Positions 50,681-56,649 of a stretch of DNA of 64,000 nt are shown here, piece after piece. The stretch is from a virus. Positions within the stretch are counted from its first letter, which is position 1; each line of letters begins with the position of its first letter. The notes beneath the pieces are model-generated. The model saw only the letters and a list, made by a program, of their open reading frames with translations. It was not told where the DNA came from and searched no databases. The stretch spans positions 1 to 64,000 of the IMG/VR virus record IMGVR_UViG_3300036761_001135; one strand, 5' to 3'. The translations under genes and the position numbers were made by a program.

Positions 50681-51427
50681 ATGAGCAAAGCGGTCCCATA
50701 CTCAAAACTCAAGAAGATGCGCTGCCATAGAGAAGTCTATGAAAGACTGTGCGCTGGTTATCCCTTCCCAGAGGTGGCTAGGTTTATTCAAGAGGACGAA
50801 GGCGAGTACCTAGACGTAGGTCGCCGATCCCTCATTGAAATATTGCGCGACTATTCCGAACGCGAAATCGTCGGTGTAGATCTGATCGCACCACGCTTGC
50901 CGCATTTGATCGTGAAGGCACAAAAGGAATTCAGTGACCGATTGGAGGATCTCCGTCGCCTGGAGCGAGCCTACGAGGCGTTGTTGTACAGATTCGATAT
51001 GTCCCATGGTGCGGAGCGGCGCAACGGCAGGGTGAACGCGGACGTAGACCGGCAGGCCAAGGTCTTGATGGACTATGTGTCCAAGATGCACGACATCAAG
51101 ATGGATTTGGGGCTCACGGGGTCGCGTGATCTTGGCACGTTGACGGTGAGTGCAGAGCGTCTGGCAGAGATTCGGGACAAGTACGGCGAGGGTGCGGCGC
51201 GTGCCTTTGGAGATCCGGTCTCACGAGCCAAAGTTCTTGGTCTGTTGAAGCGTGTGATGCGCATTTCGGAAGACTCTGGCATCGACGATGCGGACGTTGA
51301 AGAGGCGAACCTGGGTTCGCGTGACGATCCCGAACTTTATGAGGACGCCATAGAGGCCGAATATTGTGAGGCGACTACCCCAAAATCGACTAGCGAGAGT
51401 GCCGAACAAGATTCGGAAGACAGATGA
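50681..51427 (+). CDS. Putative terminase small subunit
   Basis: Overlaps the large subunit start (ATGA), helical, GAGGGG RBS; assigned by position. Confidence 0.5.
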   Translation: MSKAVPYSKLKKMRCHREVYERLCAGYPFPEVARFIQEDEGEYLDVGRRSLIEILRDYSEREIVGVDLIAPRLPHLIVKAQKEFSDRLEDLRRLERAYEALLYRFDMSHGAERRNGRVNADVDRQAKVLMDYVSKMHDIKMDLGLTGSRDLGTLTVSAERLAEIRDKYGEGAARAFGDPVSRAKVLGLLKRVMRISEDSGIDDADVEEANLGSRDDPELYEDAIEAEYCEATTPKSTSESAEQDSEDR

Positions 51428-54400
51428 TCGTAACAGGCAACAATGGTCGTCGCAGAAGCATTAGGACGACCAGCGAGGACGTGTTGTCGTTCGAGGATGG
51501 GTACGCCCTATGCACACCAGAGGAGCGCGCCTTAGTCCATGCTTTGTTGAGCGATGACCACCCAAACGATGCGGCGAAGCTCAGTTTGGAGTTGAACGAT
51601 TCGCTCTATCAGCGGCCATTGGTGCCGATCCAGCAGTTCATCGAAGATCCTTATTACCTTGGGGACTCCATGATGACTCTGTATCCGGCGTTAAAGCAGG
51701 ATATTATTGACCTTTTTGCGGCTCCATACAGGGAAGTCGTGCTCACGGGCTCCATCGGCGCGGGCAAGAATTTTTTGGCATCTGCGGCGATTTGCCGAAT
51801 TTTGTACGAGCTGTCCTGCCTGAAGAACCCACAGATGACGTTTGGGATGTCTCCTGGTACAGAGATGGTGATCATGCTGATCTCGAAGAACCTCGTCTTA
51901 GCCCGCGAGGTGATGAAGACCAGCATCGACGACAAGGTGAAGCTCAGCCCGTACTTTATGCAGCACTTCACCCCCAAGTTCTCGACCGACTACACGCTGT
52001 TTCCCAACAACATCCGCATGACCATCGGAAGCTATGGGGCAGAGCGTGCCTTGGGAGCGAATATTTTTAGCTGCATGCTGGACGAATGTCTCAGTGGTTC
52101 AGCATGGTTGCAAATAAAAATAAATATTGATTTTTGCGCTGGTTTGTGCGATACAATCGGCATGTCCGTTGGTGATTTGTGGGCAATGGGGCCTTCGGAT
52201 CGTGACGGGTTGCTGGTTGAAGCGCTGGACCATGTGACGGGTCGGCAGACGTGGACGCCGTTTCGGATGCGGCTATCCACGGTGCAACCGTTGGTACGGA
52301 TTGAAGCCGAGGCGAACCCAGGTTCGTGTCGAGCCATCGAGCCTTCCCTTGAACATCCTGTATTGGTGCGGCGCGGCGACTGGCTAGTTTATGTCCCGGC
52401 GATTGAGATCAGCGTCGGGGATGAAGTGGCTTGGAGGCGCGACGATGGCGAAAAAGGGCGAGACACTGAGCGAGGAGATGAAGGCACGTCTATCGGAGGC
52501 GGCGAGCCAGCGGACTGGCGAACTCAATCCATTCTGGGGGAAGACGCACAGCGAGGAGATTCGAGCTTTGTTTGCGGAGAACGCGCGGAAGCAGTGGACG
52601 GGGACGCACCAAAGCGAGGAGACAAAGGCGAAGAGATCGGCATCTTTGAAGGGGCGCGTCATGTCTGCGGAGACGCGGGCAAAGATGGCAGCTTCGGCAA
52701 AGGCACGTTGTACGCCGGAGTGGCGTGCGAAGAAGTCGGCAGAGATGCAGGAACGTGTTGCAGCAGGGCTGGGACCGACGCCACCAATTCAACCTGCCGG
52801 GCCAGATCATCCGTTGAGTGGGAAGCCGAAGACGGAACAGCATCGACAGGCGTTGAGCGCGGCGAGGCTAGGGTTGCCGGGCCATGCGCACACCGAGGAG
52901 TCGCGGGACAAGATTTCGGCGGGGAACGTGCAGGCGATCAAAGATCGGGTGCGGTCATACCGCTACCATGTGTCATCGCCGGATGGCGGGGTGGTTCCAT
53001 GCCGGACGGAGAACGAAGGTCGTTTGGCGCTCCACCTATGTGCGGAGAAGAATGTAACAGCGGTCGTTGGCGAAGATCATATGACGTGGGTGCCATACAG
53101 CATAAACGGACAAAATCGGTTGACAGTGGGAGACTTTCTTGTGACGAGGGACGACGGGGTGCAGGTTTTGGTGGAAGGAAAAGACCCAACGTCCATGTAC
53201 AACCAGCGTACAATGGCGCGCATAGAGGCGCTGTGGAAGTGGAGTCAGGAGAACAGGGTTCTGTTTATTCTTGCGATCAATGGGAAGCCATTCCCAAGCG
53301 TATGGACAGGCCCATTTGTGGACAAATTTCTCATGGACCATCTGTTTTATCAACGACAACGTGTAATCAGGAGGAGGGTCAACTCTGTTGTAATTTCTCC
53401 TTGCGGAACGATTGTGCCGTGCAAAACGGAGATGGAACGGGCGCTGGCGAGATGTTTGTGTATGGAACCTGGAGTTGCCAGTGTGGTTGGAACGGATCGG
53501 ACAGGGTCGATTCCGTACACCACGAGCGGACGAGTGCATCATGTGGAGCCAGGTTTCATGGTGACGCGGTCGGACGGGGTCATTGTCGTTGTGGAGGTGG
53601 AGACGGCATCTGGTCTGTATCGAGAGAAAGACAGGGCGCGGTTGGAGGCATTGTGGGCGTGGTGCCAGGAGCACAAGACGCCGTTTGTGTTGGCTATCAA
53701 CGAAAAGGGGTTCCCGAGCGTATGGACGGGGCCGTTTGTGACGGAAGAGTTCATGGAGAGCGTGCGGCAACGTCGCGTGCGCTTTCGCACCATGCAGACG
53801 GTCGATACCTTGGAGGTTGCCGTGCCGAGTGTTTGCGAGTTGACGACCTGCCTACAGAGTACCGACTCGTTCGCGTGATCTCGACGCGCCTGTTGCCGGC
53901 CGAGCAGACCTACAGCATCGAGACGGACTGCAAGACGTTTGTGGCTGACGGATGCGTGGTCCACAACACCAACTTCCCGCCCAAGAGAAGTGCTCAGCAG
54001 ATTAACCAGACGTTTGGCAAGAAGCTGACGGCGGCCAACTTTGACATCGTGGAGAAGGTGTACCGATCCATGCTGCGGCGCATCAAGTCGCGCTTCCAGA
54101 TCGCTGGCGGCGACTTTCCGGGCATGGTCATCATGGTGTCTTCGGCGGCGACCTTGGACAGCTTCACAGAGCGCAAGTTGAGGGACGCGCGTCGAGACCC
54201 AACTGTGTTCGTTCGAGATCACACGGCGTGGACATCGAAGCCCAGGGATCATTTTTGTGGTAAATGGTTCTACGTGCTGTGTTCAAAATCCAGCCTTCGG
54301 TCTCGTATTCTCGAAGAGGGCGAGTACAACGAGATCACGCAGGAGTTTTTGCAGGAAAACAATGCGTGGATGATCGAAGTGCCGATTGAGTATAGGGAGG

Positions 54401-56649
54401 ACTTCGAGTCCAACCTTGAGGACTCCTTGCGAGACATCGCGGGCGTGTCCACGCAGGCCATCTCGGCTTTCTTCCAGAGGGTGGATGCCATCGACGCCTG
54501 CATAGTGGATCGTCCGCATCCATTCTCCAGCGAGGTCTGGGTGGCTGGGTCGCCGGCGACGTTCACTTGGGATACGCTATGTCGGAAGATCGAGCGGAGA
54601 CTGCCGGGTGGATTTGTAGAAGCCGCATGGGCACCGAAGGAATCTCCAAGCCATCCTCGTTGGATTCATATTGATACTTCCATCAGTGGGGACTGCGTGA
54701 CGGCGGATACGCTGGTGGCAACCCCGGCTGGGAACGTTCGCATTGATTCCATCGTTGCGGGAACTCCTGTGTATAGTCTGGGTGCAGACGGAAAGTTCAC
54801 GGTTGCCACTGCGACGAATCCTGGTCTGAAACGGCGGGAGTCGCCGTTGGTACGTGTCGTGACAGATGGGGGATCGATTCGGTGTACGCCCGATCACAAG
54901 TTCATGTTGCGTGATGGAACATATTGCGAGGCCAGGCTTTTGCGGGATGGAGATTCGTTGATGCCACTGTACAGGCGTTGTTCAGCTAAGCATCCTGGAC
55001 GTCGCGGGGGTGGAGGGTACGAGGAAATTTATCAGCCTGCGTCAGAGCGGTATGCGGCAGCTCATCGTGCGGTGGCGGAATATAAGATAGGTAGATTGCT
55101 AACTGAAGACGAGTGCGTTCACCATGTGGGAACCGAGAATCCAGACAATAAGTTAGACAACCGGCCAGAGAATCTGGAGGTGATGGCGAAGCGGGACCAC
55201 TGGCGTTTACACCAGACGCTGATTGTCGCCTACAACAAAAGTGAGCGGCATCGTGCCTGGGCTCGGGAGTGGGGGCTATGGTCTTGCACGCATCCGACGC
55301 CTGCCATGGTGGAGGCGCGTCGTCGGAATGGGAGTGCGCGGTGCCGATTGATCAATGCTGGGGAATCGAACCCATCCAAGCTGGAGAAAAATAGGAAGCG
55401 ATTTGGGGACATGGTGCGGGAGCGGCATGCCAATGGTTTGTGTACGGAGAACTACAAGAATTTTAAAAGACCTGAAGTACGTGAGAAAACTCGTGCGGCG
55501 GTGTCGATTTCCAGTCGAAATCGCCAATGGAGCGATGAGAGCCGACGCAAGTTATCCATTCGCCGACAGGAATACTTGGCCAGGGTTGCCTCGGGGGAAA
55601 TCGAACAGAAGCCGGTTAGCGCGGAGACACGGGCTAAGATGTCTGCGTCGCGTCGTGGCAAGACATGGACAGATCAGGCTAGAACGAATCATATGGCTTC
55701 CTTGAAGCAACAGGAGTGGACAGAAGAGAGCCGGGCTAAGATAGCAGACGCCAATAGAAACCGCGTGTGGAGTGAGGAGAGCCGTCAGAAATGTGCAGAG
55801 GCACAACGGAGACGGCATGAGAAGAAGCAGTCACAGCGGGAGATTAAGAATCACAAGGTTTTGCGGGTGGAGGATGCGGGCCATGAGGATGTGTATTGCC
55901 TGACGGTGGACGGTGAGCACAACTTCGTGGTGGTGTTTGGCGAGGATCGATTTTCGTCTGGGGTTGTGATCCACAACAGCACAGGATTCGTGATGGGGCG
56001 GATAGAAAGATGGGTAGAGGTAGTGCGCCGTGACGGGGACGGCCATGCCTATACGGACACCGCGCCTTATTACGTCATCGAGGTGCTTCTGTGCATTCGG
56101 CCTCCGACCGGCGATCAAATCTACATGCCGGATTTGAGAAGGCTGGTTTACGAATTGCAGGCGCATGGTTTTCCTATCCATGGGTTTTCGTCAGATTCAT
56201 TCCAAGCCGTGGAAATGCACCAACAGATTCGGCGGCACGGAATCCATACCGAGCTGATTTCGATGGACCGCATCATAGATCCCTATGAGGAGTTGAAGTC
56301 GGCAATTTATGAAAAAAGGATTGAGTATTACGGGTATACTCCATTGCTTCAAGAACTAAGATCGCTTGAGTATGATCGTGTAAAAGGAAAAATAGACCAT
56401 CCTCGTCATGCCAGTAAGGACGTTGCCGATGCATTGGCTGGCGTGGTCTGGGGCCTTCGCCAACAGGCCGCTCGCTTGCCGTGGGCTGCGGATGCTGATA
56501 CACCAATAAGAGCGGTCGGTCATGAGCATGGCTGGGTGAGCGACATGATCCCAGCGGAGGACGTGGATCTCGAAGATGTGAGGTTAACTCGCAGGACGGG
56601 TGCCGCCGCATTAGATATCATGCTCCCATTTTTCATAGGAGATGACTGA
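51424..56649 (+). CDS. Terminase large subunit with two inteins (mature about 686 aa)
   Basis: Walker A GSIGAGKN; Walker B CMLDE-TNF and nuclease motif HIDTSISGD-STG restored by splicing; KDVADALAG; upstream of portal. Confidence 0.92.
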   Translation: MIVTGNNGRRRSIRTTSEDVLSFEDGYALCTPEERALVHALLSDDHPNDAAKLSLELNDSLYQRPLVPIQQFIEDPYYLGDSMMTLYPALKQDIIDLFAAPYREVVLTGSIGAGKNFLASAAICRILYELSCLKNPQMTFGMSPGTEMVIMLISKNLVLAREVMKTSIDDKVKLSPYFMQHFTPKFSTDYTLFPNNIRMTIGSYGAERALGANIFSCMLDECLSGSAWLQIKINIDFCAGLCDTIGMSVGDLWAMGPSDRDGLLVEALDHVTGRQTWTPFRMRLSTVQPLVRIEAEANPGSCRAIEPSLEHPVLVRRGDWLVYVPAIEISVGDEVAWRRDDGEKGRDTERGDEGTSIGGGEPADWRTQSILGEDAQRGDSSFVCGERAEAVDGDAPKRGDKGEEIGIFEGARHVCGDAGKDGSFGKGTLYAGVACEEVGRDAGTCCSRAGTDATNSTCRARSSVEWEAEDGTASTGVERGEARVAGPCAHRGVAGQDFGGERAGDQRSGAVIPLPCVIAGWRGGSMPDGERRSFGAPPMCGEECNSGRWRRSYDVGAIQHKRTKSVDSGRLSCDEGRRGAGFGGRKRPNVHVQPAYNGAHRGAVEVESGEQGSVYSCDQWEAIPKRMDRPICGQISHGPSVLSTTTCNQEEGQLCCNFSLRNDCAVQNGDGTGAGEMFVYGTWSCQCGWNGSDRVDSVHHERTSASCGARFHGDAVGRGHCRCGGGDGIWSVSRERQGAVGGIVGVVPGAQDAVCVGYQRKGVPERMDGAVCDGRVHGERAATSRALSHHADGRYLGGCRAECLRVDDLPTEYRLVRVISTRLLPAEQTYSIETDCKTFVADGCVVHNTNFPPKRSAQQINQTFGKKLTAANFDIVEKVYRSMLRRIKSRFQIAGGDFPGMVIMVSSAATLDSFTERKLRDARRDPTVFVRDHTAWTSKPRDHFCGKWFYVLCSKSSLRSRILEEGEYNEITQEFLQENNAWMIEVPIEYREDFESNLEDSLRDIAGVSTQAISAFFQRVDAIDACIVDRPHPFSSEVWVAGSPATFTWDTLCRKIERRLPGGFVEAAWAPKESPSHPRWIHIDTSISGDCVTADTLVATPAGNVRIDSIVAGTPVYSLGADGKFTVATATNPGLKRRESPLVRVVTDGGSIRCTPDHKFMLRDGTYCEARLLRDGDSLMPLYRRCSAKHPGRRGGGGYEEIYQPASERYAAAHRAVAEYKIGRLLTEDECVHHVGTENPDNKLDNRPENLEVMAKRDHWRLHQTLIVAYNKSERHRAWAREWGLWSCTHPTPAMVEARRRNGSARCRLINAGESNPSKLEKNRKRFGDMVRERHANGLCTENYKNFKRPEVREKTRAAVSISSRNRQWSDESRRKLSIRRQEYLARVASGEIEQKPVSAETRAKMSASRRGKTWTDQARTNHMASLKQQEWTEESRAKIADANRNRVWSEESRQKCAEAQRRRHEKKQSQREIKNHKVLRVEDAGHEDVYCLTVDGEHNFVVVFGEDRFSSGVVIHNSTGFVMGRIERWVEVVRRDGDGHAYTDTAPYYVIEVLLCIRPPTGDQIYMPDLRRLVYELQAHGFPIHGFSSDSFQAVEMHQQIRRHGIHTELISMDRIIDPYEELKSAIYEKRIEYYGYTPLLQELRSLEYDRVKGKIDHPRHASKDVADALAGVVWGLRQQAARLPWAADADTPIRAVGHEHGWVSDMIPAEDVDLEDVRLTRRTGAAALDIMLPFFIGDD
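52087..53967 (+). mobile_element. Terminase intein 1 (627 aa) carrying an out-of-frame nested gene
   Basis: Starts CLSGS right after Walker B DE; SLEHPVLV block B; ends TFVADGCVVHN followed by Thr. Confidence 0.88.
52445..53878 (+). CDS. Nested (+1 frame) homing-endonuclease-like protein: NUMOD3 repeats plus two TnsA-like PD-(D/E)XK domains
   Basis: GGAGG RBS at 52433-52437; NPFWGKTHSEE, HQSEETKAK, HTEESRDKIS; GDFLV...LVEGK; duplicated FPSVWTGPFV. Confidence 0.85.
   Translation: MAKKGETLSEEMKARLSEAASQRTGELNPFWGKTHSEEIRALFAENARKQWTGTHQSEETKAKRSASLKGRVMSAETRAKMAASAKARCTPEWRAKKSAEMQERVAAGLGPTPPIQPAGPDHPLSGKPKTEQHRQALSAARLGLPGHAHTEESRDKISAGNVQAIKDRVRSYRYHVSSPDGGVVPCRTENEGRLALHLCAEKNVTAVVGEDHMTWVPYSINGQNRLTVGDFLVTRDDGVQVLVEGKDPTSMYNQRTMARIEALWKWSQENRVLFILAINGKPFPSVWTGPFVDKFLMDHLFYQRQRVIRRRVNSVVISPCGTIVPCKTEMERALARCLCMEPGVASVVGTDRTGSIPYTTSGRVHHVEPGFMVTRSDGVIVVVEVETASGLYREKDRARLEALWAWCQEHKTPFVLAINEKGFPSVWTGPFVTEEFMESVRQRRVRFRTMQTVDTLEVAVPSVCELTTCLQSTDSFA
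54694..55977 (+). mobile_element. Terminase intein 2 (428 aa) with HNH endonuclease and NUMOD3 repeats
   Basis: CVTADT, CTPDHKF, HH...NKLDNRPENL, SAETRAKMS, ends VIHN followed by Ser. Confidence 0.92.

Follow-up and report, generated by a model that had tools for sequence, protein, structure and literature searches.

Gosselin, Arsenault and Gogarten (bioRxiv 10.1101/2025.01.02.630785) have described contiguous inteins of actinobacteriophages, often located in the large terminase, in which the endonuclease is encoded in a separate reading frame, and they proposed that this arrangement originates when a free-standing endonuclease invades an intein. An endonuclease overlapping a contiguous intein in another frame is also reported by Phillips et al. 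(bioRxiv 10.64898/2026.09.14.751524) for the cyanobacterial dnaX intein. In fractured genes (Dassa et al. 2009, PMC2677866), split inteins flank a free-standing GIY-YIG or Vsr-like endonuclease; the terminase is among the host genes and NUMOD motifs occur. In the ShiLan domain (Arsenault et al. 2025, PMC11855218), an HNH endonuclease encoded out of frame lies within a phage DNA methylase gene. Here we examined the large terminase (TerL) precursor gene in a stretch of 64,000 nucleotides (nt), hereafter the window, of the IMG/VR virus record IMGVR_UViG_3300036761_001135 (168,688 bp, about 91% complete). The first of its two inteins, intein 1, is very probably a contiguous intein that carries, in its endonuclease-insertion loop and in the +1 frame, a homing endonuclease gene of the free-standing type encoding NUMOD3 repeats and a TnsA-like nuclease.

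The locus resembled those of Gosselin et al. in that an endonuclease open reading frame (ORF) lies between the splicing blocks in another frame, the host frame is open, and the endonuclease has free-standing relatives (L039, L040 and L041 in this study). Their endonucleases are endonuclease VII-like in 'frame 3' on the same strand, or VSR-like and LAGLIDADG in antisense, whereas NUMOD3 and TnsA-like domains are encoded here in the +1 frame, and the phages are uncultured ones from sediment and wetland that have a T4-type portal. To that description we add a quantification of stop avoidance, the selection on each frame and the full set of homing-cycle states. The dnaX intein, whose enzyme is reportedly of the LAGLIDADG type, is alike in its other-frame overlap but differs in its cellular host gene and in lineage. 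Fractured genes share the order, on one strand, of N-intein, endonuclease with its own start and C-intein, and in both systems the 3' end of the endonuclease overlaps C-intein coding sequence (6 to 69 nt in PMC2677866, about 64 nt here). Fractured genes, however, have an N-intein stop, a non-coding gap of 27 to 51 nt and a C-intein restart and are trans-spliced; none of these features was found here, where the open frame is kept by selection. Membership in the fractured-gene or split-intein class was rejected, as the terminase frame contained no stop from 51424 to 56646 and the Shine-Dalgarno (SD)-like site and ATG of the endonuclease lay inside intein codons. The ShiLan domain is similar in that the insertion has no stops in the host frame and hides an endonuclease ORF in a different one. 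It differs in having no intein splicing domain, so that the read-through stays in the mature protein, and in having no detectable ribosome-binding site and a proposed GTG start, whereas a GGAGG-N7-ATG is conserved here. For the nuclease itself, the closest described protein was Tn7 TnsA (1f1z, 1t0f), with which it shares the PD-(D/E)xK fold and an E...D...(E/Q)xK active site; TnsA, however, serves as a subunit of a transposase and interacts with TnsC through a C-terminal domain, whereas the nuclease here is fused to NUMOD3 and a homing role would be its likely function. The novelty implied by the initial annotation of this locus is therefore reduced, since preprints of 2025-2026 had already presented an arrangement of the same kind. 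What is new here is that the nuclease belongs to the TnsA-like PD-(D/E)xK family and that it has a second, tandem nuclease domain which is catalytically dead.

The 477-amino-acid (aa) ORF in the +1 frame, with its GGAGG and an ATG at 52445, was present as initially described (Table 1), and database comparisons recovered the NUMOD3 repeats and TnsA-like domains that had been recognised in its translation. The match to Pfam PF08722 (Tn7_TnsA-like_N) scored 29.7 bits against a cut-off of 26.5. When a profile of the endonuclease family was compared with PDB, TnsA was matched with an expectation value (E) of 8.5e-4, D230 and E244-x-K246 being aligned with TnsA D114 and Q130-x-K132, and the profile's N-terminal part matched the I-TevI DNA-binding domain (1i3j). 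An AlphaFold2 (AF2) model of the endonuclease had a predicted local distance difference test score (pLDDT) of 81 overall, exceeding 90 in nuclease domain 1 and falling below 50 in the tail. A Foldseek search with this model gave TnsA 1t0f as the top match (E 4e-5, probability 1.0), followed by other PD-(D/E)xK nucleases. The conserved E-G-K of domain 1 corresponded to E244-G-K246. Pfam, the PDB profile and Foldseek thus all gave a TnsA-like PD-(D/E)xK nuclease with NUMOD3, a family that differs from the endonuclease VII-like enzymes. Assignment to the Vsr-like/EDxHD family (I-Bth0305I) was also rejected: the PDB profile produced no Vsr or 3r3p match at E<=1, there was no Vsr match in Pfam, and the alignment contained no EDxHD.

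Domain 2 of the endonuclease is a 420-nt tandem duplicate with 48% aa identity to domain 1, and the duplication preserved both frames. It lacks three catalytic residues, the equivalents of E210, D230 and K246 being T, G and E, respectively, and it was detected only in the lineage of the window (the window and L007), being absent from every other homologue examined. Given the loss of these residues, the enzyme may be a pseudo-dimer on a single chain, with only one of its active sites left. Among cultured phage records, nothing beyond the generic NUMOD3 region was matched, and prokaryote genome contigs gave just two weak partial matches, to N-terminal residues 6-107 and 42-63. A literature search for TnsA-like homing endonucleases returned nothing relevant.

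Table 1. Coordinates of the terminase precursor gene of the window, its inteins and the nested endonuclease gene
Feature	Coordinates	Strand	Remarks
Nested endonuclease gene	52445..53878	+	477 aa; +1 frame relative to terminase; stop 53876-53878
GGAGG SD-like site	52433..52437	+	7 nt 5' of ATG 52445, inside intein codons W-R
NUMOD3-repeat helical DNA-binding region	52445..52940	+	Pfam NUMOD3 E 6e-15; helices in model
Nuclease domain 1, TnsA-like PD-(D/E)xK	52952..53344	+	Catalytic E191, E210, D230, E244, K246 intact (endonuclease numbering)
Nuclease domain 2	53375..53764	+	Tandem duplicate of domain 1; three catalytic residues lost
Terminase-frame read-through	52438..53814	+	About 460 aa; Gly/Arg/Ala/Asp-rich, not conserved, stop-free
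Intein 1	52087..53967	+	627 aa in terminase frame; precursor C222 to N848, then Thr+1
N-terminal splicing region	52087..52431	+	Cys1, variable AT-rich patch, block B SLEHP (52345-52359), end GDEVAW
C-terminal splicing region	53815..53967	+	First part, 53815-53878, read in both frames
TerL precursor ORF	51424..56649	+	1741 aa, two inteins
N-extein	51424..52086	+	Ends MLDE, the intein 1 insertion site; MLDE/TNFPPKR uninterrupted in P0154
Intein 2	54694..55977	+	428 aa; in-frame HNH + NUMOD3, conventional; at ISGD/C ... IHN/S

Both frames had been noted to be free of stops for about 1.4 kb, and this openness was found to be far beyond chance. Across the endonuclease gene of the window, the terminase frame contained 0 stops, compared with 16.9 +/- 3.0 expected from synonymous-codon shuffles, and 0 of 20000 shuffles reached this value; the third frame contained 17 stops against an expectation of 18.9. 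A stop-avoidance test was then extended to homologues, as the initial annotation had proposed. At-risk sites were defined as third positions at which T would be synonymous but would make TAA, TAG or TGA in the host frame. In eight pooled loci, T was present at none of 533 at-risk synonymous sites but at 449 of 1460 sites elsewhere (Fisher p 4e-71). The number of potential host-frame stops in the +1 phase ranged from 88 to 168 per gene, none being forced by any adjacent pair of endonuclease codons, while in the other phase 1 to 7 codon pairs per gene force a stop. As the host-frame stops of the +1 phase all consist of a third-position T followed by AA, AG or GA, they can be removed without altering the endonuclease protein; since none is forced, the cost of an open terminase falls wholly on silent sites. 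Judged by its codon pairs, +1 is the permissive phase. These results showed that host-frame stops are avoided through synonymous choice in endonuclease codons.

With the endonuclease as query, a full HMMER run returned 27 hits below 1e-10. Loci were pooled from the contigs of 11 HMMER hits, 6 further loci from a scan of IMG/VR, and L001 and L007 from the first scans, and comprised 17 distinct loci of metagenomic or viral origin (window/L007, L001, L028, L029, L030/31, L032-L035, L036-38, L042 and L045-L050). The endonuclease of every one of the 17 lay within an intein and shared the +1 phase, and host-frame stops numbered 0 against 2.5 to 23.6 expected. Endonuclease identity to the window fell to 36% across the nested loci, with values of 33-36% for L035 and L042. 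The intein sequence flanking the endonuclease in these two loci, both on short contigs (L035:1-1419 and L042:1-936), was unlike the terminase intein, and the element may, from these flanks, live in other inteins or host genes as well. The free-standing relatives L039 (P0033) and L040 and L041 (P0143) lay among small phage genes. L039 and L040, the two most distant relatives, had 6 and 15 stops, respectively, in the overlapping frame, close to expectation, and T occupied 6 of the 42 at-risk sites of the former and 15 of the 51 of the latter. Being free-standing and without avoidance, these two genes provided a natural negative control.

Some nested loci differed in how their genes were called. 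In L034:324-1265 and L033:1-1005, the start of the called product (P0011 and P0005, respectively) lies beyond the conserved M-[AP]-x-K-G, and in L034 the frame is open from 324 with the first ATG at 573; this could reflect a non-ATG start or an N-terminally decayed copy. The automatic call for L028:763-4355 splits the terminase and starts it inside the endonuclease tail, and in L032:2560-5341 the region upstream of the endonuclease received no terminase call, although the terminase frame is open throughout.

The position given to intein 1 in the initial annotation was exact, and its splicing motifs were all found where described, namely SLEHP, the GDEVAW end of the N-terminal region and YSIET...FVADGCVVHN/T in the C-terminal region, which ends YSIETDCKTFVADGCVVHN followed by T. 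Intein 1 has the features of a class 1 intein: a Cys1 nucleophile, a block B S-x-x-H, HN/T and a precise insertion. Residues C1, S87, H90, P91, H626 and N627 were invariant in 5 aligned homologues. The predicted LDE-TNF junction proved to be the exact sequence of intein-free homologues, and in-silico removal of both inteins left an extein of 686 aa with end-to-end 82% identity to P0154, a homologue that has no intein and is assigned by its match to phrog_2 (terminase large subunit), and in which both junctions, MLDE/TNFPPKR and ISGD/STG, are uninterrupted. Between Cys1 and the first conserved strand lies a variable insertion, the AT-rich stretch 52100-52170 (about 47% GC), which showed no conservation in L001. 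This patch was considered as a promoter but is not supported as one, since it held no sigma-70 site and is not kept in L001.

Other states of the same insertion site were also detected. Many terminase relatives, of 660-690 aa, are without any intein, and L043:1161-1736 (P0170) contains a 192-aa mini-intein at MLDE/TNF. The N half of the window's intein 1 was 34% identical to the N half of this mini-intein (E 9e-15) and its C half 59% identical to the C half (E 2e-24). In the +1 frame of the mini-intein, a GAGG-ATG was followed by what is left of the N-terminus of the endonuclease, 33 codons (MPPKGQKLSEEA...), which indicates that the mini-intein arose by in-frame internal deletion of the nested gene. 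As the window's halves match the mini-intein, we infer that the intein works over, and tolerates, linkers from about 30 to about 470 residues.

Frame-specific selection was examined, as initially proposed, by comparison of the ratio of nonsynonymous to synonymous substitution rates (dN/dS, omega) in the two frames. In the core of the overlap, substitutions were most frequent at third, then first, then second positions of endonuclease codons. Endonuclease identity was 45-69%, compared with 20-47% for the terminase-frame product. By the Nei-Gojobori method (NG86), omega was 0.13-0.32 in the endonuclease frame, against an apparent 1.5-1.9 in the terminase frame, and purifying selection was thus detected in the endonuclease frame only. 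It is possible to regard the nested ORF as a silent relic that has not yet decayed while only the terminase frame is translated. A degenerating derivative does exist in the mini-intein of L043 with its 33-codon remnant, and the second nuclease domain of the window is already catalytically dead. We consider this explanation very unlikely, given the low omega of the endonuclease frame, the fast third position, and the fact that 17 loci, diverged to as little as 36% identity, have kept the gene intact together with its catalytic residues and its SD/ATG.

Another proposal is that both products are selected, the Gly/Arg-rich stretch being a functional domain of the intein or precursor. This stretch is always present and stop-free, and its composition is similar across loci, being G/R/A/D/E-rich and 13-18% hydrophobic over a length of about 230 to 460 aa. 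In the window it contained 18% G, 10% R and 5.5% C, and a Pfam search gave no match at E<=1, in agreement with its initial description as a Gly/Arg/Cys-rich middle without recognisable domain. A protein-database search with P0001 residues 345-815 returned only the query among 8000 low-complexity candidates and was uninformative on spread. True dual coding of this type is very unlikely, however, since amino acid identity is lower than in the endonuclease, the wobble position of the terminase frame is the slowest with an apparent omega above 1, no family match was obtained, and the composition follows from shifted Lys/Glu/Arg-rich codons. Furthermore, the stretch is nearly all deleted in the P0170 mini-intein and varies in length over the range given above. 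The terminase-frame omega and identity values indicated that the read-through is constrained only to lack stops.

A different pattern was observed at the 3' end of the nested gene. For the tail of the window-L001 pair, omega was 0.24 in the terminase frame compared with 1.0 in the endonuclease frame. Of 7 single-nucleotide polymorphisms (SNPs) that distinguish L007 in the tail (53772-53856), 5 were synonymous in the terminase frame and all 7 change the endonuclease; SNPs in the C-terminal region of contig X2, from a further sediment run, likewise left the terminase protein unchanged. Conservation with the C-terminal splicing region of the mini-intein begins near 53815, so that the true two-frame overlap amounts to about 64 nt. 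Substitution patterns thus showed protein-level selection that acts on the endonuclease frame in the core and on the intein frame in the final ~64 nt.

The start of the nested gene was maintained across loci. The other nested loci had GGAGG or GAGG at the same place, ahead of a start that reads M-[AP]-x-[KR]-G, and the start MAKKGETLSEE was conserved in homologues. Where the full start was found, an endonuclease-frame stop lay 12-93 nt upstream of it. These features bear on the proposal that the endonuclease is reached by programmed frameshifting (+1 near 52440 and back near 53870) and not by internal initiation. In its favour, the frames change over exactly at the domain borders, and an SD-like GGAGG upstream of a shift site is known to stimulate +1 frameshifting in prfB. 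Against it, stop avoidance over 1.4 kb shows that ribosomes must cross in the terminase frame, the ATG and M-[AP]-x-[KR]-G are kept with a stop just upstream in the endonuclease frame, and neither border showed a slippery motif that is conserved; moreover, we know of no precedent for two efficient shifts. Such frameshifting is therefore highly improbable.

The compensating indels near 52440 and 53850 for which a check had been advised were not present in independent assemblies. L007, from another metagenome, differed by 26 SNPs and no gap across 2125 nt (98.8% identity), and contigs of three further sediment runs, X2 (38-52x), X3 and X4, covered 52056-53985 with no indel. An assembly or sequencing artefact, whereby two such indels put an ordinary in-frame endonuclease out of frame, has in its favour only a prior plausibility for metagenome assemblies and can be almost completely discounted, as the same phase recurs in sixteen other diverged loci and an artefact would not yield host-frame stop avoidance.

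The arrangement that we favour, a contiguous intein with an independently started nuclease in the +1 frame, had been put forward in the initial annotation and is borne out in its layout, start, junction and selection; translation of both frames and splicing are its predicted part. Under this arrangement, intein 1 is inserted after MLDE, and the endonuclease gene occupies the usual endonuclease-insertion loop. Ribosomes on terL would read through the nested gene and yield a non-functional Gly/Arg-rich linker of ~460 aa between the splicing halves. The intein would then fold around this linker and splice, giving a 686-aa TerL with a native MLDE-TNF junction. A minority of ribosomes would initiate at the internal GGAGG-N7-ATG (52445) and produce small amounts of the endonuclease. 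This enzyme would cut intein-free terL alleles during mixed infections, and repair would copy the whole element into them.

Several observations weigh against this interpretation. The step from sequence to two translated frames and a spliced product is a prediction, and no RNA runs holding the sequence were listed for the stretch. A sigma-70 promoter scan of 51300-54300 gave no site for the nested gene. The N and C halves of the window's intein alone had no significant match to PF14890 (Intein_splicing), and the mini-intein P0170:221-412 matched this family at E 1.7e-7 with 31.6 bits, below the 35.8-bit cut-off. An AF2 model of the whole 627-aa intein, built with a 5-sequence alignment, had a mean pLDDT of 29.7 throughout, splicing halves included, and hence supports neither fold nor disorder, nor assembly of the halves. 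Finally, the loci are related, so that they are not fully independent counts.

It had also been suggested that intein 1 is an intermediate between contiguous and split inteins. This suggestion did not fit the data, as the layout was retained while the endonuclease diverged to 36%; a state that is old and stable disfavours an intermediate. Taken together, the observations allow a wider reading, which we offer tentatively: NUMOD3 and TnsA-like enzymes might form an old homing lineage nearly confined to +1-frame genes in contiguous inteins, with the overlap being a stable strategy and not a transient accident, endonuclease output being both coupled to and limited by the ribosomes that move along the late terL message, and the window enzyme being a pseudo-dimer with one dead active site. 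If this were true, such a pseudo-dimer could be a nickase or an asymmetric cutter.

The remainder of the terminase gene provided further observations on inteins. Intein 2, initially described as a conventional in-frame intein, had HNH and NUMOD3 matches that agreed with this description, and a portal gene (phrog_213) lies downstream of terL. The terminase of L001:1834-7812 (IMGVR_UViG_3300036985_006199) contains three inteins, one following VVL close to the TGSIG.GK motif of the N-terminus, one at MLDE and one at SKD/C near the C-terminus; the window terminase adds a further insertion site, ISGD/C. Mini-inteins were present at the VVL-type site in P0174 and at the C-terminal site in P0172. This terminase family is an intein hotspot, with at least 4 distinct insertion sites.

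These findings indicate that an intein in an essential phage gene can bear 1.4 kb whose in-frame translation is meaningless, which lets a separate selfish gene be read in another frame, and that such a two-frame state lasts over deep divergence, as shown with a natural negative control. They also explain the permissiveness of the +1 phase. Loci of this type are mis-annotated by gene callers, as in L028 and L032, and the probable tolerance of an unstructured insert of 230-460 aa is relevant to intein engineering. TnsA-like PD-(D/E)xK nucleases join the enzymes associated with inteins, and the locus favours an origin of intein endonucleases from incoming genes of the free-standing type.

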